A stretch of 64,000 nt of DNA from positions 64,001 to 128,000 of the forward strand of contig CAVWBU010000041.1 in assembly GCA_963753345.1 (NCBI GenBank), given 5' to 3'. Below the pieces are notes generated by a model. It was not told the DNA's origin, did no database searches, and saw only the letters and a list, made by a program, of their open reading frames with translations. The stretch's first letter is position 1. The number at the start of each line of letters is the position of its first letter. The DNA is from an uncultured Fibrobacterota bacterium (GTDB lineage Bacteria; Fibrobacterota; Chitinivibrionia; Chitinivibrionales; FEN-1185). A program made the translations under genes and the position numbers. This document shows positions 6,432 to 29,722 of this stretch, piece by piece.

Positions 6432-6445
6432 AAATGGGGGGCATT

Positions 6446-8245: not shown

Positions 8246-8360
8246 GTCATTGCGAGCACAAAGCGATGCGATCTGATACAGACCGCATCGCTTCTCAGCA
8301 GATTGCCATCATCAAGGTCTGCAGCTAGAGATTGTTTCGTCGAGGACTCCTCGCAATGAC
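8246..8360. repeat. REP-like palindromic element (GTCATTGCGAG...CTCGCAATGAC type)
   Basis: Perfect 11-bp terminal inverted repeats at 8246-8256 and 8350-8360 in an intergenic gap. Confidence 0.7.
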
Positions 8361-8464
8361 ACCAGGCCAATCGCCGAAATTGTTTTTAAACGATTTCGGC
8401 AGTCCTTGATAGACAGCAGGCGCAAAAAAATTCTGCTGCCGGTTTATCCAAAAGGGGGGATCAA

Positions 8465-10044: not shown

Positions 10045-10059
10045 TCACGGAGGTTTTCA

Positions 10060-11624: not shown

Positions 11625-11685
11625 GAAAACAGATAGTGCGGACATCCTTGTTTTTCTTTATTATATTGGGTGAATGATCAAGACA

Positions 11686-11714
11686 GGTACCCTGAATCTT
11701 CAGGGTACCCTTTT
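11686..11714 (+). terminator. Probable intrinsic terminator or palindrome
   Basis: ggtaccctga-atct-tcagggtacc followed by ctttt. Confidence 0.5.
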
Positions 11715-11792
11715 GTCAGGCAGCGTTGAAAGATGATTAGCACTTTGTTAATCGGTTAATACGAAAAGACCATCATCAAAAGGGGGAATCTC

Positions 11793-13466: not shown

Positions 13467-13541
13467 GCAAGGCAGGGGTCTTCGGATCAACGTTACGTAA
13501 CACGAACCGTGACATCTGCTCATCCGGGAAGAGGAGCTTGT

Positions 13542-14891
13542 ATGCGCAATCGGATTCTTGTCCTCGTGGCGGCAGTTGTTGCGCTGTGCCTGTCCGCCTG
13601 GGCCCAGCCCGAGTTTTCCCCCGACAGCATCAAGGGCGCCTGCAAACGCGTGGCAAAGGCGCGCCTGAAATCGACCCAGGACAACGGTTGGCAGGGCGGC
13701 ACCTACTACGAGGGCGTGATGGCCCTCTATTACATGACAAAGGAGCAAGGCTACCTCGACACCACCGTAGCATGGGGCAAATACCACAACTGGATTTCGT
13801 CGTCAGGCGACAGCGCACCCACCAACTCGGACAACGTGGGATGCTATCAGGCATACCTTGAAGCCTACATGCAGAACCCGCTCCCTGCAAACGCCGGCTG
13901 GATCGCCGCGCCTATTGTGTATGTCAACAGAAACACCTACCAGATTCAACCGTCGTGGCCCATCGTCGACCAGTACCACATGTCGGCCGCGAACTTTGTG
14001 CGCGTGGCCGCGATCAACCACGACAGCGTAATTCTCGATTCACTGTACAAATTCTGCACGACGATTGCAATGCGCCATTACAACGTGAAGGACAGCCTGT
14101 TCAACAGCAACTGCAGCGACACGTCCCAGCCGCGCGACGCCTACTGGGGCCGCGGATGCGGCTGGGGAGTGATGGCACAGTGCCGTATCCTTCAGATGCT
14201 TCCGAAGTACCACTATTCGGCACCCTGGTACAAGGACAAGCTCCGTGCAGTGCTCTATCGACTCCTGCGACTCCAGAACCAGACCGACGGCATGTGGCGC
14301 AGCGACCTGATCAACCACCCAGAATGGAACAAGGAAGCAAGCTCCACTGGGTTTTTCGCGTTCGGCTATTTCTACGCCATCCGCAACGCAATCATCGATA
14401 GCGCGACCTATATTGGTCCGGCCAAAATGGCCTGGAAAGGACTGCTCGATTGCATCGGCGTTGACCCTGCCCAGCCCAACCTGATCGGCTGGTCCCAGGG
14501 CGTGGGCGGTTCGCCTTCCAACAACTTCGGCATCACCAACCACGACGAATATACCGAGGGCGGGTTCTTCCTTGCGGGCAACGAATTCTACCGGCTGCTC
14601 ACCGAGGGCGTCGACCGGACGGCAACAGGCGTGTCGAACAATCATTTGTCAACAACCGCCGGTGTTACCAAGAGCGCTGCCTGCAGGTTGCTGCTGTTTT
14701 CTTCCGTAAACGGGCGGATTTCGGTCCCCGCGGCCACGCGCAGTTTTGAAGTGTACAGCATGAGAGGACAACTGCTGTACAGACAGGCGGTCGAGGTGAC
14801 CAATAGTGAACAGACTGTCACCCTGCCTGAAGCAGTTCGGCATGCACCGGCGATTGCGGTGAGGTTTACAGGCCGCTCAGCAGGTTGCTGA
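13542..14891 (+). CDS. Secreted GH105/GH88-like unsaturated glycuronyl hydrolase
   Basis: GAGGAG RBS; signal peptide; WQGGTYYEG, NSDN, IVDQYHM, YWGRGCGW, Q..DGMW and EASST motifs typical of YteR-like (alpha/alpha)6 enzymes; C-terminal tail. Confidence 0.8.
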   Translation: MRNRILVLVAAVVALCLSAWAQPEFSPDSIKGACKRVAKARLKSTQDNGWQGGTYYEGVMALYYMTKEQGYLDTTVAWGKYHNWISSSGDSAPTNSDNVGCYQAYLEAYMQNPLPANAGWIAAPIVYVNRNTYQIQPSWPIVDQYHMSAANFVRVAAINHDSVILDSLYKFCTTIAMRHYNVKDSLFNSNCSDTSQPRDAYWGRGCGWGVMAQCRILQMLPKYHYSAPWYKDKLRAVLYRLLRLQNQTDGMWRSDLINHPEWNKEASSTGFFAFGYFYAIRNAIIDSATYIGPAKMAWKGLLDCIGVDPAQPNLIGWSQGVGGSPSNNFGITNHDEYTEGGFFLAGNEFYRLLTEGVDRTATGVSNNHLSTTAGVTKSAACRLLLFSSVNGRISVPAATRSFEVYSMRGQLLYRQAVEVTNSEQTVTLPEAVRHAPAIAVRFTGRSAGC

Positions 14892-14989: not shown

Positions 14990-16567
14990 TTACCTGAGGA
15001 CAAATTTCTGTTGATGGACCTGGCTGCCCACTGTCACCCGCATCAGATACACGCCCCTGAGCCCGGACGGAAGCGTGAGGCCCACCGAAGTGCCTGACAT
15101 CGAAGGTCTTTCCAGTCTGTAAACGAGCCTGCCGCTCATGTCGACCACGACAATCGAAACCGGCCCGTTGGGCATCTTGCCGAATTCGACCGCCACACGG
15201 TTGCCGCCGAGGAATGTTATCTTGAATTCCTTGACCGCGTCTTTGACGGCGGTTCGCACGGGCGAATACTCGAATATTGCGTTGTTCGCGGGAAGCACGG
15301 GCATGTCGGCAGGCACGACGAAGATCTCACTGGGCAAAAGCGGCGGGACCCCGCCATTCTGCCAGGCAAGAGCATCGGCCGCGCTGAGCGAGTCCTTTTC
15401 AAGAGCGAGAAGGTCCATCTTATCGTCCACGAAACCGAACACCCCGCCGTAGTTTCCGGTGTTTCCGGAGAGATTGTACTTGCAGGCCCAGATGAGGGGC
15501 ACGGACCCTGCAGTCGCAGTAGACGTATCGGGGGAAATCGCCTGGATCATTTGGTACACAGTGGTTCCGTCGTTTCTGTAAAGGCTCCAGTATATGTTGC
15601 GATCCCATGCGTCTGTGGACTTCAGATAAACGCCGAAACAACCGATATAGGGAATATCCGAAATGTAACTCTTGTCGCCGGTGACGACTCTTGCCTCGGC
15701 CGTGTAGCCGGTCAGCTGGAGTTCCTTGATCATGCCGGTAATCGTGTCCGGAAACCCGGCGAAGATCGCGGCATACCATCCACTTGCGTTTGTGGAATCA
15801 ACCTGGTACTGATATGCGCGGTTCAGACTCGTGGAGTCGGGCGCGAGGCTGAGGCTTGAAGAACCGGACGGCGTAACATTGCCGTACCAATCGGTGGTAT
15901 ATTGAACGAGATTGGCAATCGGGACCAGGTAGGTGGATCCGAGCTGAAGGGTTTTCTTCATGGTGCCGTACGTCAGCACGAAGGTGAACGGAACATTGGT
16001 GGCCTTGTCAAACTCGATTGGAATGGTGGCCGGGGTCTGTGCGCACCCGTAGGTAAACGCGGTTTTTATCCCGAATTGCGGTCCCGCGCTGTCTGCGGTG
16101 AGCGGGACAGTATAGAGAATCCGGATCTTCTTGGAATTACCGATGGTGTCGGGAAATATCTTAAATTGATAGATATTGTCGCCCACTTTCTGGAGCAGGC
16201 CAGGGCAAGGAGGACCACCAAGCTGTCCTTCCATGCTCCTTTCCCTCAATTTCGCCTTAAGCAGCACGTTTCCGTTCCACACAAGCATCGAACGGACCGC
16301 CGATCCAGACGTCAGTTCGAACTGGCCCTCAATCACAAGTGTTGTCGGATCGCCGCCCGACTGTACCTGTCCCTGCGCGGATATTACCGCCTCTTCTTCA
16401 ACATCGACATAGAAGGGATGGATGATCATGTGTATAGTGTTTGATTCCAGCTTGCACGGGCCGGACGAACTCCAGTAGGTTGCGTTCGTGGTCTGCCACG
16501 TGATCTGGCCGAAGACTGCAAATGCCTGGGCAAGGACAATGAGGAAAAGGGCGTGTAGAAACCTCAT
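14990..16567 (-). CDS. Secreted protein with VIT-like N-terminal region and C-terminal sorting-like domain
   Basis: Signal peptide MRFLHALF...AVFG; SMLVWNGNVLLKAKL resembles VIT domains; tail VDMSGRLV...GVYLMRV. Confidence 0.7.
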   Translation of the reverse strand: MRFLHALFLIVLAQAFAVFGQITWQTTNATYWSSSGPCKLESNTIHMIIHPFYVDVEEEAVISAQGQVQSGGDPTTLVIEGQFELTSGSAVRSMLVWNGNVLLKAKLRERSMEGQLGGPPCPGLLQKVGDNIYQFKIFPDTIGNSKKIRILYTVPLTADSAGPQFGIKTAFTYGCAQTPATIPIEFDKATNVPFTFVLTYGTMKKTLQLGSTYLVPIANLVQYTTDWYGNVTPSGSSSLSLAPDSTSLNRAYQYQVDSTNASGWYAAIFAGFPDTITGMIKELQLTGYTAEARVVTGDKSYISDIPYIGCFGVYLKSTDAWDRNIYWSLYRNDGTTVYQMIQAISPDTSTATAGSVPLIWACKYNLSGNTGNYGGVFGFVDDKMDLLALEKDSLSAADALAWQNGGVPPLLPSEIFVVPADMPVLPANNAIFEYSPVRTAVKDAVKEFKITFLGGNRVAVEFGKMPNGPVSIVVVDMSGRLVYRLERPSMSGTSVGLTLPSGLRGVYLMRVTVGSQVHQQKFVLR

Positions 16568-16745
16568 ACTCAGCCTTTCTGTTGAATCGGTGGCATAGCA
16601 AAGGCACTTTGATATTAATAATATATCGTCTTGCACGCAGGATTGCCATCCATGCATGATAAAAGTGGTTTCTGACAGAAAACACCATACTCCTGTTTGG
16701 AGACTTGACCATTGATACTGGTGACAAGGTAGATTATGGATGAAG

Positions 16746-16882: not shown

Positions 16883-18181
16883 TTGTCAATAACCTCCCCT
16901 ACCCTTCTTCTCATCACGGCATCTTCCCCGGAAATCCAAAGGGTACGGCGGCCGCGCGTGCTCAATTTTCAGCAGATCACCATGCCCTATCTCGCCGCCT
17001 TTGCGCCGCCTCACTGGACTGTGCGCCACGTGGACGAGGCCGTGGAACCGGTCGATTTTGAAGCAGCCGCCGATGTGGTTGCGATCACCCTTCACACGCC
17101 GAGCGCGCCCCACGCATACGGCCTCGCCGACCGGTTCCGCCTGCGCGGAACAACCGTGGTGCTGGGCGGACCCCATGTCACCCTGATGCCCGACGAAGCG
17201 CAGGCCCACGCGGACGCGATCTTTTTGGGAGAGGCCGAAGAGAACTGGCCGCAGTTTCTTGCCGAATACAATGCACGCAAGTTCCGGCAGCGCTATTATT
17301 CCGCCGAGCCTCCTCTGCTCGATCATGCGCCGATGGCCCGCAAGGATCTGTTTCACCGGCGCGATTATACGGCCGGGGTCCTGTTCGCCGGACGCGGCTG
17401 TCCGCACCAATGCGATTTCTGCGCCATTGCGGTGATGTATCACGGCCGTATGCGCATGCGGTCGGTGGATGACATTGCCCGCGAATATGCTTCCTTCCAC
17501 GGCAAAGTGATCATCCTGTGGGACGACAATATCGCGGCTGACATTGAGTTCGCCAAAAAGCTGTTTCGGGCCCTCGCTCCCCACAGAAAATGGTGGAGCA
17601 GCCAGGCAAGCATTCATGCGGCCGACGATGACGAGTTCCTCGACCTGGCCGCCCGCAGCGGATGTAAGCAGCTGTTCATCGGATTGGAGTCGATATGCCA
17701 GGCAAGCATGAATGAAGTCTCAAAAGGATTCAATCGCGTGGACGACTACGGCCGAGCGATCGAGCGGATTCATTCCCACGGCATTGCCGTGCAGGCGGGT
17801 ATCGTGTTCGGATTTGACAATGATGCGGAATCGGTCTTCGGCGAGACCCTCGATTTCCTTGAGGCCGCTGGCGTGCAGAATGCGACATTCAACATTCTTA
17901 CGCCCTACCCCGCGACGCCTTTGTACCGCCGCCTGGAAGCACAAAACCGGATCCTGACCCGCGATTGGACAAAGTATAACGGCCGTGAGGATGTGGTGTT
18001 CTTGCCCCGGCGCATGAGTCCGGAGATTTTGCTGGAAGGGTACCGGTACGCAAACCGGCGGTTCTATTCTCCGAAGAGCATCGGGCGGCGCCTGTCGCGG
18101 TCGCCGGTGGGGCTGTGGTGGACCTTGCCGGTGAACCTTGCATACTCACTTGCACTGTGGTATTCGGGGCCAAAGCCGTGA
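16883..18181 (+). CDS. B12-binding domain radical SAM protein
   Basis: N-terminal cobalamin-binding fold (VVLGGPHVT, GEAE); GRGCPHQCDFC (CxxxCxxC); DDNI; GLES; TPYPATPL. TTG start uncertain. Confidence 0.9.
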   Translation: MSITSPTLLLITASSPEIQRVRRPRVLNFQQITMPYLAAFAPPHWTVRHVDEAVEPVDFEAAADVVAITLHTPSAPHAYGLADRFRLRGTTVVLGGPHVTLMPDEAQAHADAIFLGEAEENWPQFLAEYNARKFRQRYYSAEPPLLDHAPMARKDLFHRRDYTAGVLFAGRGCPHQCDFCAIAVMYHGRMRMRSVDDIAREYASFHGKVIILWDDNIAADIEFAKKLFRALAPHRKWWSSQASIHAADDDEFLDLAARSGCKQLFIGLESICQASMNEVSKGFNRVDDYGRAIERIHSHGIAVQAGIVFGFDNDAESVFGETLDFLEAAGVQNATFNILTPYPATPLYRRLEAQNRILTRDWTKYNGREDVVFLPRRMSPEILLEGYRYANRRFYSPKSIGRRLSRSPVGLWWTLPVNLAYSLALWYSGPKP

Positions 18182-18290: not shown

Positions 18291-18319
18291 AAAAGCCGCC
18301 GTGACTTCCCGGCGGCTTT
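18291..18319. terminator. Intrinsic terminator between convergent operons
   Basis: aaaagccgccg-tgacttcc-cggcggcttt. Confidence 0.75.
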
Positions 18320-18339
18320 CTCCGTAATGTCAACCAGCC

Positions 18340-19074
18340 CTATCTCGGCAGCATGGAAAGCGGAGATCGGGGACCGGCAAGCATTTTGGCCGCCGGATTC
18401 TGAAGCTTGTACTCTTGCCAGGTGTTCCACAGGTGGCACGCGCTGCAGAGGCCGGGGTCGAACACTCCGTTGATGTGCGTCGCGGTATCCACGGTGGCGG
18501 ATGCCATGTTGTAGGCGCCGCCGTGGCAATTGTAGCATTTGTTGACATTGCCGCCCACGAGAGGCGTGCCCGTCGCGGGATACCGCTTGAGCGCATGGCC
18601 GAAGTGGAACGTGTAAATGCTTGTGGAATCCGCGGTGTTGGTCGAAAGATTGTGGCACGCGCCGCACGACCTGTCGATCGAGTCGGCGTTCCACGCGACC
18701 GTTGCGTGCGTCCCCTGCGGAATGCCGCCGTGGCAGTACACATTGCTGCACTGCATGGTTGATTTATCGTAAGCCGCCTTTCCGCTGTCGTTCCAGGGAG
18801 GGGTGAAAACAACGTCGGTGTCGCCGTTCATGTGCGTAACGTTATTGACGGAAAAGATGTCACGTGCGCTGTCCGCCTCGTATCCCGCATGGCAATACGA
18901 ACAGCGGTACCCCAGCGAGTCGACATGGTACAGATGCGCCCGGTCCCTGGGAGGCAGGTCGTGGCACAGGCCGCAGGTCCTGGCGGACACTACTTCCGGA
19001 GCTTCCGCGCGCTCGCTGCAGCCGGTGACGGCCAGAGCGGCGACTGCCGCCGCCATGCAAAGTGTTTTTCTCAT
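18340..19074 (-). CDS. Multiheme c-type cytochrome lipoprotein (5 CxxCH + 1 CxxxxCH)
   Basis: ATGA overlap with the upstream gene; lipobox AVTG|C; CGLCH, CSYCH, CSNVYCH, CGACH, CYNCH, CSACH; THMNG/THING motifs of CxxxxCH/CxxCH-domain cytochromes. Confidence 0.88.
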   Translation of the reverse strand: MRKTLCMAAAVAALAVTGCSERAEAPEVVSARTCGLCHDLPPRDRAHLYHVDSLGYRCSYCHAGYEADSARDIFSVNNVTHMNGDTDVVFTPPWNDSGKAAYDKSTMQCSNVYCHGGIPQGTHATVAWNADSIDRSCGACHNLSTNTADSTSIYTFHFGHALKRYPATGTPLVGGNVNKCYNCHGGAYNMASATVDTATHINGVFDPGLCSACHLWNTWQEYKLQNPAAKMLAGPRSPLSMLPR

Positions 19075-19976
19075 CGCAGCCTGTTTTCGTGACATTGAGA
19101 GCAGAAATTCCTTGTCTCGTGACACATTACGCAATTGGAAATCCCCATCCGCACATCGTTGCCGTGCATAAACCGGTATCCCGGCGGATGGATACGGCAG
19201 GCCGTCTGGCCTAGGTGGCACCGGTCGCATTCCTGTTTGTCGTGACACTGCATGCATTCCGCCTTCCCGTACTTGGCCTCCATGCCGTGGCCGTATCGCC
19301 CCACCCACAGGTAGGTGTGCGTCTTCGGCTTGATCTGCGCGACATCGTTGTGGCACACCGCGCACTGGCCCGACGCCTTGCGGTCCTCGTGGCAGTAGAG
19401 GCACGTTTTCATGGGAGGATAGTCGTCGTGCCGCATCCACTGGCCGCGCTGGGGCTCCGCATGGCAGTAGCGGCAGTCCTTTATGCGGGCGTAATGCTTC
19501 GCATGAGAGAATTTAATCTTGAAAAGGTCGGCCTGCATGGACTTTTTTTCCGGAATTTTGTGGCAGCTCGTGCAGCTCATGTCCATGTTGAGCCGGACTT
19601 GACATACGCCGAATCCCTTGTGCATGGTTTCCATGCCCAAAACGCCTTTGTGGCACTGGCTGCATTGCTTGATGCGGCTGTCGTTGCCCTTGCGGTGATG
19701 GCACGTGACGCACGAAATGCCGGCCTTCTCGAACCCCCGGTGCGACATTACGACTGGCCCCGGCGTCCAGCCGACCTTGACGGCGGAGAGACCCGTGTCT
19801 TTTGCGGTCACGAACGAATCCACCGAGGTGACGATGACCGTGTCGGTGGTAATGGAATCGTGGAAGAAGACATCGAGCTGGGAATATCCGGGCCGCGCCG
19901 ACGAAAGCACCATCATGCATGCCGCGAAAGCGACAAAGGAGAACGTCATTGTCGAAGTACAGCTGGGTTGTGTCAT
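19071..19976 (-). CDS. Periplasmic decaheme cytochrome c (c3/c7-like modules)
   Basis: Signal peptide; 10 CxxCH: CVTCH, CSQCH, CTSCH, CRYCH, CLYCH, CAVCH, CMQCH, CDRCH, CVMCH, CSQCH. Confidence 0.9.
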   Translation of the reverse strand: MTQPSCTSTMTFSFVAFAACMMVLSSARPGYSQLDVFFHDSITTDTVIVTSVDSFVTAKDTGLSAVKVGWTPGPVVMSHRGFEKAGISCVTCHHRKGNDSRIKQCSQCHKGVLGMETMHKGFGVCQVRLNMDMSCTSCHKIPEKKSMQADLFKIKFSHAKHYARIKDCRYCHAEPQRGQWMRHDDYPPMKTCLYCHEDRKASGQCAVCHNDVAQIKPKTHTYLWVGRYGHGMEAKYGKAECMQCHDKQECDRCHLGQTACRIHPPGYRFMHGNDVRMGISNCVMCHETRNFCSQCHENRLR

Positions 19977-19977
19977 A

Positions 19978-21276
19978 TCACTTCACTTTGACCGGGACAG
20001 GGGGCTGGCCCGACTGCCAGAACCCGTGAAAATTGAAACGGGACATGAACATGACGCGAAAATCGCTTTTGTAATAGTCGTTCACCAGATACTCCACCTG
20101 CGGCTCCAGCACAAGACTCACCACCGGCGTGAGCCACGGAACGAACCACCGGCAAAAGGCCAGCGTTGTATAGGCATTGCGCCAGTCGGTTACGAGCAGC
20201 GTCTTGTACCGGTCGAACTGGAACGCCGCCCCTATATCGAAGACCTGGGCGTAGGCAAACGTGTAGCCCGGAACGATTTCATAGGTGGTGCCGTGGACGC
20301 CGGTGTTTACGTCGAGCCGCAGCGATGCGCCCTTTGCCAGAAGATTGCAACTCGCCAGGTGGTCTGTTCCCTCGCCGAACGCCCTCAGCGAATACGCGCC
20401 GAGAAACGAAACATCGCGCAGGAAGCCCAGGCCGATCACCATGCCGCCTTCGTTGTACTTGTCAAGGACCAACCGTTCGTAATAGTTGACCGAATCTATC
20501 TGACTTGCCCGGCCCGCGGCATGAATGGCAAGGTGGAGCATGTCCCAGCGCACGAGGCCTGCCTCGAGGTAGTATTCGTCAAGGGTTTGTGACGTGACGT
20601 CATAGCGGACATGGCCACGGACGCCCACGACATGGCCGATGTCGGACCGCAGGCTCGCGGCGGCTCGGTAGTGGCGGTCGAGATCGGAGTCCTGCTTGTC
20701 GGCCGAGACGCCCAATCCCACTTCGGTCCCGCGCAGGAAGCGCGCGCTGCCGTAGAAGCCCGCCTGCACTCTTTTCGGATCGAGGCTCGCGATGCTGTCG
20801 GAATACCTCGACGGCGTGGCCGTGCCCCCGAACGCATAGAGCGAAAGCACCTTGCCCGCATCGTAGCCGAGGCTGAGCCCGTCGAGATAGCCGGCGTCCA
20901 GGGCAAAGGTGTTGACAAACTGTCTGCCGAGGCTCGCGCTGAGTCCCAGCGGTTCGTGGGTCCAGTCGAGGCTGGTTGAGCGGAGCTCGTACTGCTTGGG
21001 CATGCCGCTCGTCTTGTCGTTGGTGACGCTCACATCGGACGAAAACGAAAGCGCCGATGCTCCCGGGTTGCGGACCGCAAGACCCACGTCCTCGTAGAAA
21101 TTGTTCCGCCTGGCCGTTGCGCTGGATACCGTATCTACCCTGTCGTCCCTGGCATAGTAGGTGTTGCCTTCGTAAACGTTGAGCGAAACCCCGAAGACGG
21201 CGGAACAGACGGCAAGAAAAACGGCAAGGACGGCGCCTGGTTTTCCGCGGGTGCAATTGCGGCAGCGCATCAGCAT
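19978..21276 (-). CDS. Predicted outer-membrane beta-barrel (porin-like) protein
   Basis: Signal peptide (VLAVFLAVCSAVFG); alternating amphipathic aromatic-rich strands (LSASLGRQF, LDGLSLGY, YTFAY, FNFHGFW). Start could be 21291, 21276 or 21270. Confidence 0.65.
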   Translation of the reverse strand: MLMRCRNCTRGKPGAVLAVFLAVCSAVFGVSLNVYEGNTYYARDDRVDTVSSATARRNNFYEDVGLAVRNPGASALSFSSDVSVTNDKTSGMPKQYELRSTSLDWTHEPLGLSASLGRQFVNTFALDAGYLDGLSLGYDAGKVLSLYAFGGTATPSRYSDSIASLDPKRVQAGFYGSARFLRGTEVGLGVSADKQDSDLDRHYRAAASLRSDIGHVVGVRGHVRYDVTSQTLDEYYLEAGLVRWDMLHLAIHAAGRASQIDSVNYYERLVLDKYNEGGMVIGLGFLRDVSFLGAYSLRAFGEGTDHLASCNLLAKGASLRLDVNTGVHGTTYEIVPGYTFAYAQVFDIGAAFQFDRYKTLLVTDWRNAYTTLAFCRWFVPWLTPVVSLVLEPQVEYLVNDYYKSDFRVMFMSRFNFHGFWQSGQPPVPVKVK

Positions 21277-21284
21277 GCATGCCC

Positions 21285-22853
21285 CTAGCATACCCTGAAC
21301 CTCGCTATTTCCGCGCCCGCCTTTGCGCAGTGAATGGCGCATGCAAGGCATGGGTCGAATGTCCTCACCACCCTCGCGGCCTCCATGGGGTTTTTCTCGT
21401 CCACTACCGGCGTGCCGGCGAGCGCCTGCTCCATGGGGCCGGCCACGCCATTGTCGTCCCTCGGGGACGCATTCCACGTTGTCGGCACAATGCACTGGTA
21501 GCGGGCAATTTTTCCGTTTTTCACCGAAATCCAGTGGCCGAGCGCTCCGCGCGGCGCCTCGCCCAGGCCCGCCCCCTCTCCGCTTTCGGGAACGGCGCAC
21601 TCCTGTCTCGGTCTTCCGCCTTCTTCTATTTCGTCAAGCCAGCCTGAGATCTTCTTGCACAGGAGCCTGCTCTCCACGGCCCTTGCCGCGTGTCTGCCGA
21701 TTGCGGACTGTAGTTTTGCAAGCGTGAGGCCTGTGGCGGCAAGGAGCGCATCGACCTCTCGCCGTATGTCCACACTGCCTGCCGTGTATCCCACCATCAT
21801 GCGTGCCAGAGGCCCAACCTCCATCGGCTTGCCTCCGTACCGGGGCGCCTTTATCCACGTATATGCTCCGGCCTTGTCGACAGAGGGCTCGGTCTGCCCC
21901 TGCGACGGATGAAGGTTCGTTGCCGAGGAATAGCGCGAGTGCAGGACCTGCTCGGTTATCCTGGTCTGGTCGAATGCCACTCGTTTTCCCTCCGACACGA
22001 TGCCACGCGGAAAGTAAAGGTCTGCAGTCTCGGGACCGTCGGGAAATTCCCCGTAGGCAAGAAAATCGCCGAACCGGCCGAGCTCCGCATACCCGGGAAG
22101 CGACTTCGCGAGCGCAATCACGTCGGGCACATAGGCGAAATTGACAAATTCGCCTATTTCCGCAAGAATGGTCCTGGCGGACGCTACGGCCGCCTTGTCG
22201 GGCGTCTGCGCCACACCGCCGGGCACAAGCCCGATTGCATGCGGGACCCTTCCCGCGAACAGCGCCACGAGCCGGTGCGCCTTCATGCGTATGTCAAGCG
22301 CCTTTACGTAGTGCGCTATCGCGGCGATGTTGAACGCAGTGTCCTTTATGTAGAAGCCTTCTCCGGCGTACCTCGGCAGAAACGGCGCACACGCCGTAGC
22401 AGCTTCGACACCGGTCTTCTTTTCCGAAAGTTCGCTCTTCGCCCATGCCTTGAGATACAGGAGCTTCTCGTCGTTTCCGGAATATGCGAGGATCGCAGTG
22501 ATATCGACGTAGTCGAGCGCGGCTAGATGATAGAAGTGCAGGATATGCGACTGCAGAAAGTTGGACGCCAGCGCAAGGTTTCTCAGGAGCCGCCCGTTCT
22601 TGTTGGGCACGACCCCACAGGCGGTTTCCACGCACCGCGACGATTCGATGCCGTGTGAAACAGGGCATACGCCGCAGATGCGCTGCGCTATCTGCACCGC
22701 GTCGAAGGGATGCCTTCCGATAAGGATCTGCTCGAAGCCGCGGAACATGTCGCCCCGCATGCGCGCCGACGTAACCCTGCCGGCATCAACGTCGAGCTCC
22801 ACCGACAGGTGGCCTTCAATGCGGGTGATGGGATCGATGACGATTTTCGACAT
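21285..22853 (-). CDS. [NiFe]-hydrogenase large subunit (group 1, 1a-like)
   Basis: IDPITRIEGH; L1 RICGVC; EAPRGALGHW; L2 FDPCLACAIH (Cys codon TGC, not Sec) plus a cleavable C-terminal extension. Confidence 0.95.
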   Translation of the reverse strand: MSKIVIDPITRIEGHLSVELDVDAGRVTSARMRGDMFRGFEQILIGRHPFDAVQIAQRICGVCPVSHGIESSRCVETACGVVPNKNGRLLRNLALASNFLQSHILHFYHLAALDYVDITAILAYSGNDEKLLYLKAWAKSELSEKKTGVEAATACAPFLPRYAGEGFYIKDTAFNIAAIAHYVKALDIRMKAHRLVALFAGRVPHAIGLVPGGVAQTPDKAAVASARTILAEIGEFVNFAYVPDVIALAKSLPGYAELGRFGDFLAYGEFPDGPETADLYFPRGIVSEGKRVAFDQTRITEQVLHSRYSSATNLHPSQGQTEPSVDKAGAYTWIKAPRYGGKPMEVGPLARMMVGYTAGSVDIRREVDALLAATGLTLAKLQSAIGRHAARAVESRLLCKKISGWLDEIEEGGRPRQECAVPESGEGAGLGEAPRGALGHWISVKNGKIARYQCIVPTTWNASPRDDNGVAGPMEQALAGTPVVDEKNPMEAARVVRTFDPCLACAIHCAKAGAEIARFRVC

Positions 22854-22870
22854 AATATTCTTTAGCTACG

Positions 22871-23039
22871 AGTTGACAGTTGACGGTTGACAGTTGACGG
22901 CAAGAATCATGTGACAATAACGACCACGTGCAAGCAAGATACACCGCTCCGGTTACAAATTGGAAATTGCAGGAACAACTTCATTCGGAATTTTGTACTT
23001 TGCTTTCAACTGAAAACTGTCAACCGTCAACTGTCAACT
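22871..23039. repeat. Inverted heptamer arrays between hydrogenase subunit genes
   Basis: (RGTTGAC)x4 at 22871-22898 and (GTCAACY)x3 at 23019-23039. 22871-22891 is the exact reverse complement of 23019-23039. Confidence 0.85.
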
Positions 23040-23046
23040 TGTTTGT

Positions 23047-23961
23047 TTATGCCTTCTTCGCCGTAAACAACCCCCGCTCGCCCGTGTCCGGGAACACCGG
23101 CTCAGTGCAGCCGATGCACCCGGCGCCGCACCCCGTGCACGAATTGACGCCGAGCCATTTGCGGACGGGAATGTCGCAGTTCGAATCAATGCCGAGGCAC
23201 CCGAGCTTGTACAGGCAGCCCTTGTCGCCCCAGGAGAGCGCGAACTCGTTCTTCCGGTATTCCTGGAGGTGTTCGCATTTGTCGTGCACCGTGGTCTTGA
23301 AATACAAAAGCGGCCTGCCGTACGCGTCGAGCTTGAGCCTCTTGCCCATAATAAGGTGCACCAGACTGCCGATGATCCAGTCCGGGTGCGCAGGGCAGCC
23401 GGGAATGTTGATCTGTTTTACGCCGGGCAGCACGCCCCACACCGGCATGGCGCCTGTGGGGTTTTCCCCGCCGCTCCGCATGCGCGCCGCGGGAATGCAG
23501 CCGTAGGCTGCGCAGGTCCCCACGGCCACCACCGCCTTCGCGTTCTTCGCAAGGAGCCCGACCCACTCGCGCACGCCGCGCGGTTTTCCGTTCACCTCGC
23601 CGATGGTGCAGAACGTCTCGGATTTTGCCGGAATGGAACCTTCGACCACCAGCACGTAGTTCTTTTTGCCTTCGTCAAGCGTTTTAAGAAGGATGTCGAT
23701 GGCGGTGTCGCCCGTGGCCGTGGAAAGCGTCTGGTGGAAGTGGAGGCTGATATGGTTGGTGATGAGCGTCGCGATGTCCGGGTCGCCGGCGTTGAGCAGG
23801 GACACCGAGTCGCCGGAGCAGCTCTGTCCCTGGAGCCAGATGACTGGGGTCCGCTTTGAGGCCTTGCCCAGGGTGATCTTCGTGCCGGCGAGCACGACTT
23901 CCGGAAACGCCAGAAGCGCGGTTGCGCCGCCCACGATGCGGATGAATTCTCTTCTGTTCAC
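23047..23961 (-). CDS. [NiFe]-hydrogenase small subunit, Tat-exported, no C-terminal membrane anchor
   Basis: GTG start overlapping the upstream stop; NRREFI twin-Arg; WLQGQSCSGD, VEGSIP, GTCAAYG, PGCP, HDKC, CLYKLGC, GCIGC. Confidence 0.95.
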   Translation of the reverse strand: MNRREFIRIVGGATALLAFPEVVLAGTKITLGKASKRTPVIWLQGQSCSGDSVSLLNAGDPDIATLITNHISLHFHQTLSTATGDTAIDILLKTLDEGKKNYVLVVEGSIPAKSETFCTIGEVNGKPRGVREWVGLLAKNAKAVVAVGTCAAYGCIPAARMRSGGENPTGAMPVWGVLPGVKQINIPGCPAHPDWIIGSLVHLIMGKRLKLDAYGRPLLYFKTTVHDKCEHLQEYRKNEFALSWGDKGCLYKLGCLGIDSNCDIPVRKWLGVNSCTGCGAGCIGCTEPVFPDTGERGLFTAKKA

Positions 23962-24464
23962 GTGGCTGAAGTTTCCCCGCCGGTTCCCAGCGTCCCCGTT
24001 GATTCCTGATATTCGGCAATAATCGTTTGAACCATTGCAACGACCCTCGGCAGGACCGCTCTCACCGCCTGCGTCGGCTCCGGGTTCATGCTCTCTGCAT
24101 CGGCCGGGACAATCCCCAGAATCTCCGTACGCGGCCGTTCTCCCAGCAGACGCACGGCGGAAAGCGCATCGCGGATCCCCGCCTCGTGAACCGAAAACAT
24201 GCCGTCTGTTGTATTTGTCAAATACGATGCCGGGAACCTGAAAACGCTGCCGGGCGGCGCATTCGTTTTAAGGGCGTCAATCACCAGAATGCGCACCCTC
24301 CCGGAAATCAAGGCCGGCAGGTCGAGTCCGTTTGCGCCCGCGTCAACCGCCTCAACCCCGTCGGGCAGTCGCCCCGAGTCGAGGAGCAGGTTAACCGCAT
24401 GAACTCCGGCGCCGTCGTCGGAACGAAGCATATTCCCCATTCCCAGGATAAGCACAGGTTTCAT
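23958..24464 (-). CDS. Hydrogenase maturation endopeptidase (HyaD/HybD family)
   Basis: ILGMGNMLRSDDGAG, VIDA, SVHE motifs. Confidence 0.92.
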   Translation of the reverse strand: MKPVLILGMGNMLRSDDGAGVHAVNLLLDSGRLPDGVEAVDAGANGLDLPALISGRVRILVIDALKTNAPPGSVFRFPASYLTNTTDGMFSVHEAGIRDALSAVRLLGERPRTEILGIVPADAESMNPEPTQAVRAVLPRVVAMVQTIIAEYQESTGTLGTGGETSAT

Positions 24465-24648: not shown

Positions 24649-25746
24649 CTACCTCTGCACCCTCGCGCTCCCGCCCTTCATGATCTTTTCCACTTCCTTG
24701 AGCGTGGCGGTCGACGTATCGCCGGGCGTGGTCATGGCGTGCGCTCCATGCGCCGCACCGCAGTCCACGCAGTACTGCGGGTCCTTCCCGGAAAGGAACC
24801 CGTAGATGCAGCCGGAGGCAAAACTGTCGCCGCCGCCCACGCGGTCGCAGACGGCAAGATCGGGGTATTTGCGGGACTCGTAAAACTTCCCGTCGCACCA
24901 GAGCACCGCGGCCCAGTCGTTGACGGATGCGGTTTTCGCGTCGCGAAGCGTGGTGGCAACCGCCTTGAAGTTCGGGTAGGCCTTCACCGCCTTTTCGATC
25001 ATCCTCTTGAAGCTCGCCGGATCAAGACCGCTCAGGTTTTCGTCCACGCCCTCCACCTCGAATCCGAGCGCCGCAGTGAAATCCTCCTCGTTACCGATCA
25101 TCACGTCGACGTAGTTCGCGATTGCGCGGTTGACTTCCTGCGACTTGGCCTTGCCGCCTATCGACTTCCACAGCGATTCGCGGTAGTTAAGGTCGTAACT
25201 TATCACGGTGCCGTTGGCCTTGGCCGCCTTCATGGCCTCGATCACGACATCCGCCGTGGTGGCCGAAAGCGCCGCGAAAATGCCGCCGCAGTGGAACCAG
25301 CGGGCCCCCTCCTCCTTGAACAGTTTGTTCCAGTCGACGTCGCCCGTCTTCATTTGTGAAGCTGCCGAATTGCCGCGGTCCGACACGCCCAGCGCCGCGC
25401 GTACGCCGAAACCGCGTTCCGTAAAGTTAAGTCCCACGCGGACATTGCGGCCAATGCCGTCGAACGGAACCCATTTGATGTGCGACGCGTCGACCCCGCC
25501 CTGATAGACGAGGTCGAGCAGAAGCTGGCCCACGTCGTTTTCCGGGATCGCGGTGACCACGGAGGTGGCGCAACCGAAGCAGCGCTTGAGCCCCCGCGCC
25601 ACATTGTATTCGCCGCCGCCTTCCCACACCTTGAATTCGCGCGCGCACTTGATGCGGCCCTCGCCCGGGTCGAGCCGGAGCATGATTTCGCCGAGCGAGA
25701 CTTCGTCCCATTTGCAATGGGCCTTTGGTTTGATGGTGAGGGGCAT
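24649..25746 (-). CDS. kdgK: 2-keto-3-deoxygluconate kinase (PfkB family)
   Basis: SLGEIMLRL, GGGEYNVA, YDLNYR, GNEED, DRVGGGDSF. Start at MPLTIKPK. Confidence 0.9.
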   Translation of the reverse strand: MPLTIKPKAHCKWDEVSLGEIMLRLDPGEGRIKCAREFKVWEGGGEYNVARGLKRCFGCATSVVTAIPENDVGQLLLDLVYQGGVDASHIKWVPFDGIGRNVRVGLNFTERGFGVRAALGVSDRGNSAASQMKTGDVDWNKLFKEEGARWFHCGGIFAALSATTADVVIEAMKAAKANGTVISYDLNYRESLWKSIGGKAKSQEVNRAIANYVDVMIGNEEDFTAALGFEVEGVDENLSGLDPASFKRMIEKAVKAYPNFKAVATTLRDAKTASVNDWAAVLWCDGKFYESRKYPDLAVCDRVGGGDSFASGCIYGFLSGKDPQYCVDCGAAHGAHAMTTPGDTSTATLKEVEKIMKGGSARVQR

Positions 25747-25839
25747 CTTGGGAACTCCTGTTGATGAGTTGAAGCGTATTCGCGTATATGCGTGTATGCG
25801 TTGATGAGATGATGGGTTGATTTGCGCAACAGTAGTATT

Positions 25840-25864
25840 GTCACTCCCGCGGAAGCGGGAGTCC
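25840..25864. repeat. REP-like palindrome (GTCAYTCCCGCG..GCGGGA.TCC type)
   Basis: gtcactcccgcggaagcgggagtcc in the eda-kdgK gap. Confidence 0.65.
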
Positions 25865-25896
25865 ATCATCCTTTACTATCATCCATATATAGGGGT

Positions 25897-26544
25897 CTAC
25901 TTCTTCACCCCCGCCGCTTTCGCAATCTCCACCGCGCGTTTCGTGATTTCGGCTATCTGGTCAAACGCTTTGGCGTTGATAAGATCCGCTTTGGCTATCC
26001 ATGTCCCGCCGCAGCACAGCGTCTTTGCAAACGCGAGATACGCGGCGAGGTTCTTTTCTTCTATGCCGCCCGTGGGCACGAACCGCACCTTGCCGTACGG
26101 CGCGCTCATGGCCGTAAGCGTCTTGAGCCCGCCCATGGCTTCGGCCGGGAAGAACTTGAGCACGTCCACGCCCAAGTCCAGCCCCATCTCTATTTCCGTA
26201 GGCGTCGCAACGCCGGGCGTCACCGGGATGTTGTTCTTGATGCAATGCTCCACCACCTTTGGGTTGAACCCCGGCGCTACGATAAACACCGCGCCGCAGT
26301 CAACGGCTTTCTTCACCGTGTCGACGTTCAGTACCGTTCCGGCGCCCACGAGCATGTCGCCCCGCGATGCCATTTTCGTTATCGCGTCCGCAGCCGCCGC
26401 GGTGCGGAAGGTGATTTCGGCGCAGGGAAGGCCGCCCTTTACAAACGCGTCGGCAAGCGGCGGCGCGTCGCCGGCGTCGTCGATCTTGACGACCGGGATC
26501 ACCTTCATCTGTTCGAATTTCCTGAAAAGTTCGTTTTTGTCCAT
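25897..26544 (-). CDS. eda: KDPG/KHG aldolase
   Basis: EITFRT, GAGTVL, PGVATPTE, KFFPAE, FVPTGGI. Confidence 0.93.
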   Translation of the reverse strand: MDKNELFRKFEQMKVIPVVKIDDAGDAPPLADAFVKGGLPCAEITFRTAAAADAITKMASRGDMLVGAGTVLNVDTVKKAVDCGAVFIVAPGFNPKVVEHCIKNNIPVTPGVATPTEIEMGLDLGVDVLKFFPAEAMGGLKTLTAMSAPYGKVRFVPTGGIEEKNLAAYLAFAKTLCCGGTWIAKADLINAKAFDQIAEITKRAVEIAKAAGVKK

Positions 26545-26629
26545 TAAAGCTCCTTGCCGCGAATGTTCCCTTACACGCCCTTGTTCTATGATCTTCAGCA
26601 ATTAAAATCTACAATCTACATTCTACAAT

Positions 26630-28628
26630 CTACAATTTATATATCTCTCCGCTCCGGTACGCCTGCCACGCAGTCTCGAACCACGCATCGGCCTTGGGCA
26701 GCGGCCGGCGGGGCACCCATTGGTGCGAAAAGATTGCTTCTCCGGCCGAAACCACGTCCGTTTCCATCACCTTGTCGCGGAAGCGCTCGTCCAATGGCTC
26801 GAACCGCCATTCGTCGCCGAGGTCCTTGTGAGCGGGCAGTCCGTTTTTGTCAAGCACCACGGCCGATCCCCTGCTGCCCGCGCCGCTGTCCACCGCGAAC
26901 TTCACGGCGTCAAGATACGCCGCGTGCGCAAAACACAGCTGCAGATTGCGCAGGGATTCCACGGCATCTTTGACCGTGCGGCAGGCGTTTCCTTCGGCTG
27001 CGAGGCGCAGGTACTGGTCGCGCGCTTCCGGCACGGACGCGGCCAGCACGGCCGAGCTCCTGATGTGCGCGCCCGCCTTGGTCATGCGGCCCTGGAACTC
27101 CGCGCGCTCGTCCTGCCATCTTCTGTTTCGAACTTTTGCATTTGTCAATCCAGCCGAGCAGCCGGGCCGCGGTCTTCCCCGCCTCTGCAGCGGCAGCGCT
27201 TTCCCCCAGATCCTTTGCGGCATAACGGTGCGCAATGTACTCGGCTGCACGGAACCCGGCAACCTGCCCGGAATTGAGCGCCGAGCCGCCCGGCCGGTAA
27301 ATGCCGTGCGAGCCGTTCACTTCGCCGACCGGAAACAGGTGCTTGACATTCACCGATTCCCACCACAGGTTTCCGGCCAGCCCGCCGTTGTTGTGCTGTG
27401 CGCACACCGCGACCTCAAGCGGTTCCTTCGCGAGGTCTATGCCGTGCTCTTTGTAAAGGTCAATTGCGGGCTGGTTCATTTTCGCCAATCGTTCGATGGG
27501 CGTAGCGAGCAACGCGCCCGATTTCTCCAGGTACTCGCGCGCCTCCTTCGACAACGCCGCGAAATCGAATCCTTCCGGGTTTTTCGTGTAGTCAAGAAAC
27601 ACACGCCGGCCCTTGACAACGGTCTCGATGTAAACGAGGATGTCCACGATGGACGATCCGCCTGCCGCCTTCCGGGGGTCGAACGGCCACTGGTAGCCCT
27701 TGAGGAACACCATGCTGTTCATGGCGCCCGCGCTTTCGAAGAACGGCCTCAAAAATTCCCGCGCGTCGCTTTTCCCGTCGGCGGCGGTGCTTACAAACTG
27801 CGGAATCACCTGCATGTAGGTGCCGGATACGTTCCACCGGAACTTGATGGATGCGAGGCCGTACTGCGATTCGGGCAGGCTCTGCGCCTTTGCGCCGGCC
27901 AGCAAAGCGAGCCCGATACCGCCGGTGTGCACCGTGGGATACACGCTCGTTGCGTACAGGCCGCCCGGACCGCCCGCGGCGAACACTACGTTGTCGGCGA
28001 GGTAGAGCTCGAACGCGGCAGCGGTGCTCTTCGCGGAAGACTTCATCACCACGGCGCCGGCCGCGCGCCTGGCCTCGCCTTCGCCGGTTGTCAACAGCGA
28101 CACCGCAATACGTTTTTCGCGCACCATAATACTTCGGCGTTTCACTTCGTCAATAAGCACGCGGCACATTTCGCGCGAGGTGTAGGGTCCGAACGACGTG
28201 GCGCGCTGGCGCGGGTCGTGGTCGGTCTTGTAGCCCACGAACTGGCCGTACTTGTCCGAGGGGAATTTTACGCCGAGGTTCACAAGGCTGAGGAAGGCAC
28301 GCGCCGACAGCGACGCCTCCACGAGCGCCAGGTCGCCGTGCATGCCGCCGTTGTCAAAGAACGATTCGGCAAGCGCCATGGGCGAATCGTCCTGGCTGCC
28401 GTACATGCCGAGCTTGTAGTAGGTCTGCTTGTCGCTTCCCGTGTTGATGGAGGTCCCCATGCGCAGGCCCTCGGTCACGATGCACAGGTCGGTGATGCCG
28501 TTGGCATGCAGCTGCACCGCGGCATTGAGCCCCGCCGCGCCCGAGCCAATCACCAGCGTATGGACGCGGAAGCTGGGAATGGAAAATTTTCTGCCATTAT
28601 ATTTGACGATTTGTTTGGTGGTCTTCAT
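26630..28628 (-). CDS. FAD-dependent oxidoreductase (SdhA/NadB-like FAD_binding_2), split by a +1 frameshift near 27126
   Basis: VIGSGAAG; GSDKQTYYK; QHNNGG; GEVNGSHG..RPGGSAL. C-terminus continues in 26630..27262 (WQDER...GSRGS). Confidence 0.8.
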
Positions 28629-28699
28629 TTGAGGATTTCCCTTGCGACAAAATTACAATGCGATTTTCCGAGGAACCTTGACCCGTAGTACCGTTTCAA

Positions 28700-28736
28700 C
28701 CTCACCCCCGACCCCTCTCCCACAGGGAGAGGGGGA
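28700..28736. repeat. Intergenic palindromic repeat (CCCTCTCCC..GGGAGAGGG type)
   Basis: cctcacccccgacccctctcccacagggagagggg. Confidence 0.6.
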
Positions 28737-28948
28737 CAGGCACACTGACCCAACCCGGTTTCTTTTCAACTATCGCTCGTGGGTGCCGCCACAACGATGC
28801 ATGGTCTTGCAGCCACTTTATCAAGGCGGTCACCCAGGAGGGGGTAGCGCAGGACCGGCCGTGGACATTTTGAATACTGGTTTGTGAAGTACGCGGCCGG
28901 GCCGGAGCGAGGGGGAAACTTCCCCCCTTGTAAAGCTATCTATTTAAA

Positions 28949-29722
28949 TCATAATCTTGATATCGAAAATCCCCCGTCCACATTCACCACCTGCCCGGTC
29001 GAATACCCTATGTCGCCGCGCGCCATCATTGCGGCGCATTTCGCAATGTCTTCGGGCATGCCCCAGCGCTTCTGCAGCAGGACCCCTTCGGCGATGAGCT
29101 TGTCGTACTTCTCCTTGACCACCGACGTCATATCGGTCATGATGATGCCGGGCCGTATCTCGTACACAGGAATATCTTCCTGGGCAAGGCGCACGGCCCA
29201 CAGCTTTGTGGCCATGCTCACGCCCGCCTTGGAGACGCAGTACTCGCCCCTGCTGATGGACGCGGTCTCCGCCGACGTCGACGATATGTTGATGATGCAG
29301 CCGCTCCACGACTTGTCCGCTTTCTTCTGCTCGATCATCCAGCGGGCCGCATGCTGCGTGAGGAAATACGGACCCTGCAGGTTGATCCGCATGACGCGCT
29401 CCCAGCTCTCTTCCGTTGCGTCAAGCACGTCAGCGCGCACCTTGGGGGCCACGCCCGCGTTGTTGACCAGCACGTTGAGCCCGCCCATGGTTTTTCTTAT
29501 TGCGTCAAGCGTGTTGCTCCTGTCGAGGGCGCTGCTCACGTCGCCCATCCAGTACAGGACCTTCGCGCCCGCGGCCTTGAGCGCGGCCATGTTCTTTGCG
29601 ACATCGTCCTGCGGCAGCACGTCGAACACCGCGACATCGTATCCTTCCATAGCGAACTGCCGGGCGATGGCAAAGCCTATGCCCCGCCCCGCGCCGGTGA
29701 CGAGGACTGTTTTTTTCTTCAT
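28949..29722 (-). CDS. Short-chain dehydrogenase/reductase
   Basis: TGAGRGIG, NNAG, NISS, YCVSK, RPGII, VDGG. Confidence 0.92.
   Translation of the reverse strand: MKKKTVLVTGAGRGIGFAIARQFAMEGYDVAVFDVLPQDDVAKNMAALKAAGAKVLYWMGDVSSALDRSNTLDAIRKTMGGLNVLVNNAGVAPKVRADVLDATEESWERVMRINLQGPYFLTQHAARWMIEQKKADKSWSGCIINISSTSAETASISRGEYCVSKAGVSMATKLWAVRLAQEDIPVYEIRPGIIMTDMTSVVKEKYDKLIAEGVLLQKRWGMPEDIAKCAAMMARGDIGYSTGQVVNVDGGFSISRL

Follow-up and report, generated by a model that had tools for sequence, protein, structure and literature searches.

A hydrogenase-linked putative outer-membrane cytochrome conduit in uncultured Chitinivibrionales: a candidate route from periplasmic H2 to the cell exterior

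To our knowledge, the known outer-membrane electron conduits are fed from the quinone pool via inner-membrane cytochromes, and the known soluble periplasmic hydrogenases send their electrons inward. The MtrCAB conduit of Shewanella receives electrons from the quinone pool via CymA. Soluble periplasmic hydrogenases of the Desulfovibrio type reduce cytochrome c3, and in sulfate reducers the electrons travel inward via transmembrane complexes (Hmc, Tmc and Nhc) to cytoplasmic sulfate reduction. A periplasm-facing hydrogenase that is wired without quinones to a terminal reductase is known from Dehalococcoides (Hup-OmeAB-RdhAB). Hox enzymes are cytoplasmic, and therefore a link between such an enzyme and the extEFG conduit genes of Geobacter cannot be a direct wire. 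Here we describe a six-gene cluster in which a periplasmic [NiFe] hydrogenase and a putative outer-membrane conduit are joined, in an organism without any other multiheme cytochrome and with the linkage conserved in three fermentative families of Chitinivibrionales. The cluster lies in a stretch of 64,000 nucleotides (the window) from an uncultured Fibrobacterota bacterium (assembly GCA_963753345.1, contig CAVWBU010000041.1, positions 64,001 to 128,000), and all coordinates below are those of the window.

In the excerpts of PMC6148476 that deal with such systems, an outer-membrane conduit is described as a multiheme periplasmic cytochrome together with an integral outer-membrane beta-strand protein and a redox lipoprotein, and the Geobacter examples include small five-heme lipoproteins (ExtC, ExtF) and barrels with 18-21 transmembrane domains. 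According to excerpts of PMC4245776, every porin-like gene has a periplasmic cytochrome gene as its partner, and the Geobacter cluster has the order orfS-ombB-omaB-omcB. The nearest precedent that we found in the literature is a remark, again in the excerpts of PMC6148476, that extEFG shares its transcriptional unit with a Hox-like bidirectional NiFe hydrogenase and that some clusters of OmcBC homologues encode Hox complexes. A full-text literature search, outside which most subscription journals lie, found no periplasmic hydrogenase clustered with a porin-cytochrome conduit and no multiheme conduits in Chitinivibrionales.

A preliminary description of the stretch, made from its letters alone, had recognized a [NiFe] hydrogenase operon that runs directly into a porin and two multiheme cytochromes and ends in a terminator. 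Six co-oriented open reading frames (ORFs) are indeed present at 18340-24464 on the minus strand, both in the ORF list and in the DNA as read, and the gene identities that it had given are borne out by Pfam and NCBIfam matches. The features of the cluster are the following.

23958..24464, minus strand: HyaD/HybD-type hydrogenase maturation endopeptidase, 168 aa, first gene of the cluster (Pfam HycI 59 bits; TIGR00072 117.8 bits, cut-off 47.45)
23047..23961, minus strand: [NiFe] hydrogenase small subunit, 304 aa (Oxidored_q6, NiFe_hyd_SSU_C; TIGR00391 hydA 209.4 bits, cut-off 179.5)
22854..23046, minus strand: spacer of 193 nt between the small- and large-subunit genes, carrying GTTGAC[AG] heptamer repeats in two inverted arms
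21285..22853, minus strand: [NiFe] hydrogenase large subunit, 522 aa, periplasmic c3-coupled type (PF00374 492 bits; NF033181 631.8 bits, cut-off 600)
19978..21276, minus strand: predicted outer-membrane 22-strand beta-barrel, 432 aa, putative sheath of the conduit (AlphaFold2 model and fold matches; no Pfam or NCBIfam family)
19071..19976, minus strand: periplasmic multiheme cytochrome c, 301 aa, 10 CXXCH (Cytochrom_CIII 47 bits at residues 71-147; Cytochrome_C7)
18340..19074, minus strand: lipoprotein cytochrome c, 244 aa, 5 CXXCH and 1 CX4CH, candidate terminal reductase of the outer face (TIGR01904 CxxxxCH/CxxCH domain 53.3 bits, cut-off 27)
18291..18320, minus strand: intrinsic-terminator-like hairpin and T run at the cluster end (11-pair stem with 7 G-C pairs, then GTTTTTCTTC)

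The gene order and the junctions agree with the preliminary description when checked in the DNA. The protease stop overlaps the GTG start of the small subunit in GTGA, the barrel ATG (21276) lies 8 nt past the TAG of the large subunit, the cytochrome gene begins 1 nt past the barrel TGA, and the cytochrome and lipoprotein genes overlap in ATGA. An alternative in-frame ATG of the barrel gene at 21291 overlaps the large-subunit stop and gives a 437-aa form, which is the form held in the protein collection (P0001). All six frames are intact, without frameshift or premature stop, and we propose from these junctions that the conduit genes are translationally coupled to those of the hydrogenase. The expected terminator is present as the hairpin and T run at 18320-18291, 20 nt past the last stop of the cluster. 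A terminator scan of the region is weak when taken alone, because it returned 10 terminator-like sites against 8.1 expected from shuffled sequence, and it is by position and stem length that this hairpin stands out among the sites of the scan. The arrangement is beyond chance, since five other genomes have all six genes in this order and likewise tightly joined. In all six genomes the protease gene heads the cluster, ahead of the small subunit; a hydrogenase maturation protease is more usually encoded downstream.

The 193-nt spacer between the two hydrogenase subunit genes had gone unmentioned before. Its arms (approximately 22870-22907 and 23005-23044) form an inverted repeat of 25 nt and flank about 100 nt of unique sequence, and the length of this spacer in relatives ranges from about 9 to 206 nt. 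An inserted mobile element is ruled out, as the middle is unique and only the heptamer arms recur in the genome, where tandem GTTGAC[AG] heptamers of 2-4 units are found at 57 sites. Candidate roles for the arms are those of a site for a regulator, a REP-like element and an RNA stem.

The small subunit begins with MNRREFIR, which holds the twin-arginine (Tat) signal NRREFIR, and its C-terminus (...ERGLFTAKKA / PDTGERGLFTAKKA), as read by eye, is hydrophilic and carries no hydrophobic tail or membrane anchor. The large subunit has both nickel-binding motifs, RICGVCPVSH (RxCGxC) at the N-terminal side and DPCLACAIH (DPCxxCxxH) at the C-terminal side, and the 14 residues past the latter would be removed by the protease. 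Because the motif DPCLAC has a Cys codon, the active-site residue is Cys and not selenocysteine; a [NiFeSe] hydrogenase is ruled out by this codon and by the NF045518 HysA score of 507 bits, below the cut-off of 780. The best solved relatives of the large subunit in a PDB sequence search are periplasmic [NiFe] and [NiFeSe] enzymes of Desulfovibrio and Desulfomicrobium at approximately 390 bits (1frf, 1h2a, 1cc1 and 4kl8), with the top scores tied between the 1b-type 1frf (391 bits) and the 1a-type 4kl8 (390.5 bits). From these features the enzyme is probably a soluble, Tat-exported, group 1 periplasmic hydrogenase of the c3-coupled type (HydDB type 1a or 1b). The likeness to the Desulfovibrio system extends to the soluble exported enzyme without cytochrome b and to the class III region of the partner cytochrome, while the differences are the Cys in DPCLAC and the only visible route for electrons, which here leads outward via an outer-membrane barrel. 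The preliminary description had noted no hydrogenase cytochrome b, and this holds more widely: no HyaC/HybB-type gene lies within the cluster, the best Ni_hydr_CYTB match in the source genome (G000 in our numbering; 94% complete, 4.8% contamination) scores 21.1 bits against a cut-off of 30.1, and none of the five relatives with the cluster has a match above the cut-off.

The product of 19978-21276 matches no Pfam or NCBIfam family at E <= 0.01, and its structure was predicted with AlphaFold2 from an alignment of 21 homologues. The model consists of a signal-like helix followed by 22 beta-strands (mean pLDDT 76, pTM 0.64). Among the Foldseek matches listed against the PDB, all are outer-membrane barrels, including MOMP, FimD and AlgE, and VIA-align over 48,161 chains finds FimD (Z 17.8), BtuB (Z 17.1, rmsd 3.8 over 331 residues) and other 22-strand TonB-dependent barrels. 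The preliminary description had named a product that is not a beta-barrel as the outcome that would speak against its reading, and what the model and the fold matches give is a barrel. The matches to 22-strand barrels of the TonB-dependent type imply that it is wide enough for a polypeptide plug. MtrB (6r2q_B) is also found at the fold level (Z 14.5, rmsd 4.8 over 325 residues), and like Shewanella MtrCAB the cluster combines a cytochrome of the decaheme class, here predicted to sit within a large barrel, with a lipoprotein cytochrome that would be at the surface. Membership in the MtrCAB or MtrB-PioB family is ruled out by sequence, since the barrel has no MtrB_PioB match and the cytochrome no match to an MtrA-type model in Pfam or NCBIfam, so that the likeness is at the fold level only. 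It further differs from MtrCAB in having 22 strands against 26 in MtrB, and in its lipoprotein (244 aa, six heme motifs), which is far smaller than MtrC.

Relatives of the barrel are mostly anonymous proteins. Word-indexed searches found only close relatives of the barrel, 19 from the protein and 21 from its alignment, and the sole name bearing a taxon is a hypothetical protein of "Chitinivibrionales bacterium". An exhaustive profile search reached 172 representative clusters at E <= 0.001; of the 150 listed, 10 were looked up, all of them unnamed or "hypothetical protein" and none linked to a named Geobacter protein. An Atlas feature search places the barrel near unnamed clusters of approximately 425 aa that are commonest in Myxococcota and Thermodesulfobacteriota, which we give as a lead only.

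The cytochrome that follows has an N-terminal hydrophobic leader (read by eye), a c3-like N-terminal region and 10 CXXCH motifs. The label "decaheme" given to it in the preliminary description is therefore right for the count in this protein and not for its family, which the alignment reveals to be an 11-heme family with one site lost in this species; homologues carry 9 to 11 hemes, and the hydrogenase-linked relatives 11 CXXCH. The other 10 heme sites and every family-invariant residue are kept. Heme site 2 (CSQCH, residues 105-109), within the class III region, is an extra site specific to the hydrogenase-linked clade. A complete c3 domain as an exclusive mark of hydrogenase-linked cytochromes is ruled out, as Cytochrom_CIII matches 12 of the 16 aligned homologues.

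Whether the barrel could sheathe this cytochrome, as the preliminary description had supposed, was addressed by predicting the complex of barrel residues 27-432 and cytochrome residues 34-301 with custom alignments. The score is 0.62 (runs of 0.56, 0.62 and 0.70) against 0.00 for all three controls. Among solved complexes 116 of 157 attain this mark, as do 2 of 215 mismatched pairs; for custom alignments these counts are only rough. The runs share at least 72% of the contacts, with partner pLDDT of at least 54. On the barrel side the interface is made of alternating lumen-facing residues on nearly all strands (31/33/35/37/39, 61/63/65/67/69 and so on to 405/407/409/411/413) and of several loops, and of the barrel's five invariant residues it includes three (Y266, R298 and D305). 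On the cytochrome side it is made of residues 198-296, the C-terminal third that carries hemes 6-10; the class III region belongs to the N-terminal half, which the prediction leaves outside the barrel. The model thus agrees with the supposed arrangement, in which the barrel is predicted to enclose hemes 6-10 in its lumen as sheath and wire.

The last gene product has the lipobox VTGC|S and six heme motifs (5 CXXCH and 1 CX4CH), and its best match in a PDB sequence search has an E-value of 0.023 and is to an unrelated protein. Seven homologues have the N-terminus; all of them keep the lipobox Cys, and position +2 is Ser or Asn. The lipoprotein part of the earlier assignment as an outer-membrane lipoprotein thus stands, and the outer-membrane part is a judgement of sorting made from the sequence; sorting to the inner membrane had been named beforehand as an adverse outcome, and this check by sequence did not speak for it. 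With the lipoprotein as candidate outer-membrane element, the barrel, cytochrome and lipoprotein genes present the three elements of the Geobacter Pcc (OmbB-OmaB-OmcB), ExtABCD and ExtEFG systems, in the gene order of the orfS-ombB-omaB-omcB cluster (excerpts of PMC6148476 and PMC4245776). The Pfam twin of the TIGR01904 domain of the lipoprotein, PF09698, bears the title "Geobacter CxxxxCH...CXXCH motif". By the three-element definition the trio may be called a conduit of the Pcc/Ext type, likened to those of Geobacter by its architecture and this domain. It differs from them in that a periplasmic group 1 [NiFe] hydrogenase and its protease lie in the cluster and that the genome shows no inner-membrane quinol-oxidising cytochrome. 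The Hup-OmeAB-RdhAB system of Dehalococcoides shares the concept of a quinone-free link; its proteins are unrelated, it has no multiheme cytochromes or outer-membrane barrel, and its acceptor is an organohalide at the cytoplasmic membrane.

The rest of the source genome is poor in cytochromes. The two cluster cytochromes are the only ORFs in it with at least 4 CXXCH, and only five ORFs have at least 2. A system II cytochrome maturation pair (ResB-CcsA) and TatC are encoded. Besides the cluster there are two other [NiFe] enzymes, an Ech-like group 4 six-subunit membrane complex and a 3b-like cytoplasmic enzyme beside HypA and HypF, and Rnf/Nqr-family genes are present; no [FeFe] hydrogenase was found in this 94% complete genome. 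Neither NrfD, cytochrome bd nor MqnA has a match in it, and MenA reaches only 21.6 bits against a cut-off of 102. As far as the genome goes, nothing else is visibly able to feed or drain the two cytochromes. The organism looks like a fermenter of sugars and of uronates or polysaccharides, as the window is rich in genes for their catabolism (eight tandem BNR_4 paralogues, GH88, a PfkB-family kinase, KDPG aldolase, SDR and GH81). The stretch was found in metagenome runs from peat, freshwater sediment and soil, and contigs of two further studies lie on it, many at a level of at least 99%.

Absence of the linkage in relatives had been named beforehand as an outcome that would count against it, and the linkage proved to be conserved. 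A barrel profile search of 296 Fibrobacterota genomes gave a match in 21, and the flanks of all of these were searched with the six proteins (genome, locus and family numbers are ours). The full six-gene block is present in 6 of the 21, four of one genus (G000, G002, G004 and G005) and two of other families (G029 in f4 and G044 in f5), and thus in the three families f1, f4 and f5. The proteins of the five other genomes, all Chitinivibrionales, have 26-88% identity, and the junction of large subunit and barrel is tight in all three families. A contig end cuts the view in four genomes (G001, G024, G038 and G077). The remaining 11 have the barrel-cytochrome-lipoprotein trio without a hydrogenase (G003, G006, G075, G076, G078, G079, G237, G238, G242, G291 and G295), where G006 shows only the barrel before the contig end and G295 only about 3 kb upstream. 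The hydrogenase-free trio often adjoins further multiheme cytochromes. Its neighbours in L015 (G003), L060 (G242), L064 (G078) and L065 (G291) include frames with 19, 22 and 28 CXXCH and one of 1257 aa with 12 CX4CH, and some Fibrobacterota may therefore have extensive gear for extracellular electron transfer.

Outside the phylum, 27 loci taken from an 8-row cytochrome alignment encode distant relatives of the cytochrome (23-41% identity) in Myxococcota, KSB1, Bacteroidota, Kuenenia, Neomarinimicrobiota and others. Their flanks, searched over up to 7 kb, contain no hydrogenase match at any of the 27. An ORF that matches the barrel profile (E <= 0.011) is present at 8, and at 7 of these it ends upstream of the cytochrome match, at a distance of no more than about 300 nt. 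In a maximum-likelihood tree of 20 cytochromes, the six hydrogenase-linked ones and two from loci cut by a contig end form one clade (support 99/97), and the deeper order of this tree is unsafe owing to long outgroup branches. The trio is, by its distribution, apparently an older module than the hydrogenase linkage. A single hydrogenase-linked clade with its own extra heme implies that a hydrogenase joined once to a pre-existing conduit module, and that the entry end of the cytochrome changed with it.

We favour, with moderate confidence, the explanation that the cluster encodes an oxidoreductase between H2 and an extracellular acceptor, in which a periplasmic hydrogenase of the c3 type would work with an outer-membrane conduit of the Pcc/Ext type to dispose of the electrons of fermentative H2. 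We hold the architecture with more confidence than this, and the direction and the physiological role with less. H2 would be oxidised in the periplasm by the soluble hydrogenase, and the electrons would enter the N-terminal c3-like hemes of the cytochrome, run along the C-terminal hemes 6-10 threaded through the 22-strand barrel, and reach the small lipoprotein cytochrome on the outer face. From there they would leave to insoluble or polymeric acceptors, for example humic matter or Fe(III), acceptors that only the habitat suggests. That the hydrogenase touches the cytochrome and that the lipoprotein is exposed at the surface are inferences, as are the outward flow, the acceptor and the role in physiology. 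The H2 would most likely come from the cell's own cytoplasmic Ech-like and 3b-like hydrogenases, with H2 serving as the electron carrier that crosses the membrane. The device would then be an electron sink that holds H2 low during polysaccharide fermentation rather than a proton-pumping respiration, and low H2 would make it more favourable for Ech, Rnf and the 3b-like enzyme to form H2 from ferredoxin and NADH, with more acetate and more ATP.

Several observations weigh against this explanation, and they are best considered together with the rivals on which they bear. The hydrogenase and the trio may be neighbours and not one wire, the cytochrome being a soluble c3-like pool for another acceptor or the conduit being fed by other donors, and their linkage reflecting co-regulation only. 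That the trio or the cytochrome is found without a nearby hydrogenase, in Fibrobacterota (11 genomes) as well as beyond the phylum (27 loci), implies that the module works with other donors elsewhere. The spacer, with its long inverted repeat, splits the small- and large-subunit genes and so breaks up the hydrogenase genes themselves, and its 25-nt inverted arms could affect transcription or mRNA stability; a common transcript is read solely from the 1-8-nt gaps and the overlaps, and there is no RNA run among the sequencing runs listed as holding the stretch. Mere proximity nevertheless appears unlikely to us, given that further multiheme cytochromes, partners of the NrfD or cytochrome-b type and a cytochrome bd are all absent from the source genome, that the junction between large subunit and barrel is of 8 nt or overlapping and stays tight across three families, and that the hydrogenase-linked cytochromes are one clade with its own extra heme. 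The gene absences among these come from an incomplete genome. They bear also on the quinone independence that the preliminary description had proposed, which agrees with the lack of MenA, MqnA, NrfD and cytochrome bd in the source genome and is put in doubt by MenA scores of 104.4 bits in G002 (at the cut-off) and 80 bits in G004, both of which carry the cluster. A decaying relic in this species would be another way to account for the locus, since heme site 3 in the entry domain (residues 122-126; 19599-19613, minus strand) has been lost through C122F and H126Q, with KGFGVCQVRL here and KGCGVCHVRR in the closest homologue (L020), whereas 15 of the 16 aligned homologues retain it. The change is identical in covering contigs from four runs of three studies, and in the contig records over this place the listed differences account for every other letter; an assembly artefact is thus ruled out, and with no other letter in four runs and three studies the loss is real and fixed. 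It could weaken or re-route the wire at its c3-like entry. A wire disabled altogether is nonetheless a very improbable outcome, against which stand the six intact frames, the other 10 heme sites and the family-invariant residues that are kept, and the variation of heme number from 9 to 11 among homologues.

The conduit itself may also be doubted. The trio would not cross the membrane if the lipoprotein faced the periplasm, from the inner membrane or from the inner leaflet of the outer membrane, and the barrel served as an anchor or some other channel. The lipoprotein is small (244 aa), and its place on the outer face is a conjecture from its sequence. The complex model is heme-free, with partner pLDDT of only 54-56, and because a solved porin-cytochrome complex exists (Mtr, 6r2q) its pass may partly be learned likeness. 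As modelled, on the other hand, residues 198-296 of the cytochrome thread through the lumen and touch loops that are presumed external from the strand order of the model, and the three-element pattern is that by which Geobacter conduits are defined, small five-heme lipoproteins such as ExtC and ExtF belonging to them (excerpts of PMC6148476), so that we regard a trio confined to the periplasm as quite improbable. If the conduit is accepted, its direction could be the reverse, with electrons from outside (reduced humics, Fe(0), a partner cell or a cathode) passing to the periplasmic hydrogenase, which would form H2 for the cytoplasmic 3b-like hydrogenase. [NiFe] hydrogenases and multiheme conduits are reversible in principle, the 3b-like enzyme of the source genome could take up H2, and no gene of the cluster fixes the direction of electron flow. 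The closest solved relatives of the enzyme are, however, uptake-type periplasmic hydrogenases, the formation of H2 from electrons at humic-level potentials would be thermodynamically unfavourable, and the appearance of a fermenter with an Ech-like H2-evolving complex implies surplus reductant, all of which makes an inward flow rather unlikely. One difficulty lies within the outward flow itself: as H2 is oxidised outside the inner membrane and the electrons go outward, no net charge is moved, the device itself conserves no energy, and its benefit would be indirect.

The neighbourhood of the cluster provides some further observations. On the plus strand, 19-13466 holds a tandem array of eight paralogues with the BNR_4 domain (287-599 aa), followed by GH88, and it looks like an expanded polysaccharide-degrading family. 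Three other members of the genus for which flanks are available (L012, L013 and L014) have the cluster between kinase, aldolase, FAD-protein and SDR genes on one side and GH88 on the other, which correspond here to 24649-29722 on the minus strand and 13509-14891 on the plus strand. The PfkB-family kinase is read as KdgK, and in G044, of another family, a homologue of it with 77% identity lies directly after the lipoprotein gene (L059). There appears to be a recurring link of the cluster to genes of uronate and KDG catabolism. Between the cluster and GH88 are a B12-binding radical SAM protein (DUF4070; 16883-18181, plus strand) and a 555-aa protein without a family (14990-16657, minus strand), here and in G001, and both are absent from that position in G002, G004 and G005. 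A membrane protein at 35184-36374 on the plus strand, approximately 11 kb from the hydrogenase, matches the NicO nickel transporter (31.5 bits, cut-off 27.7), and the stretch that holds its gene is set off from the DNA around it by a lower G+C at third positions (0.47-0.57).

If the favoured reading is true, about five proteins would make up a minimal route that takes electrons from H2 out of the cell, and its owners would be abundant fermenters instead of classical metal reducers. A broader idea, which we put forward tentatively and hold to be possible rather than probable, is that of H2-shuttled extracellular electron disposal, in which H2 would be the sole carrier to cross the inner membrane and would be re-oxidised by a hydrogenase docked on the conduit; fermenters could in this way reduce humics, particulate organic matter or Fe(III) without quinones or inner-membrane cytochromes, and withhold H2 from methanogens. 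The cluster would also offer a compact module for bioelectrochemical oxidation or production of H2. For the polysaccharide degraders of peat it would provide a concrete, testable mechanism for disposing of electrons to organic matter or iron and for competing over H2 with methanogens. Such a mechanism would bear on a question raised in the abstract of 10.64898/2026.05.27.727921, namely the unexplained surplus of CO2 relative to CH4 in peat.

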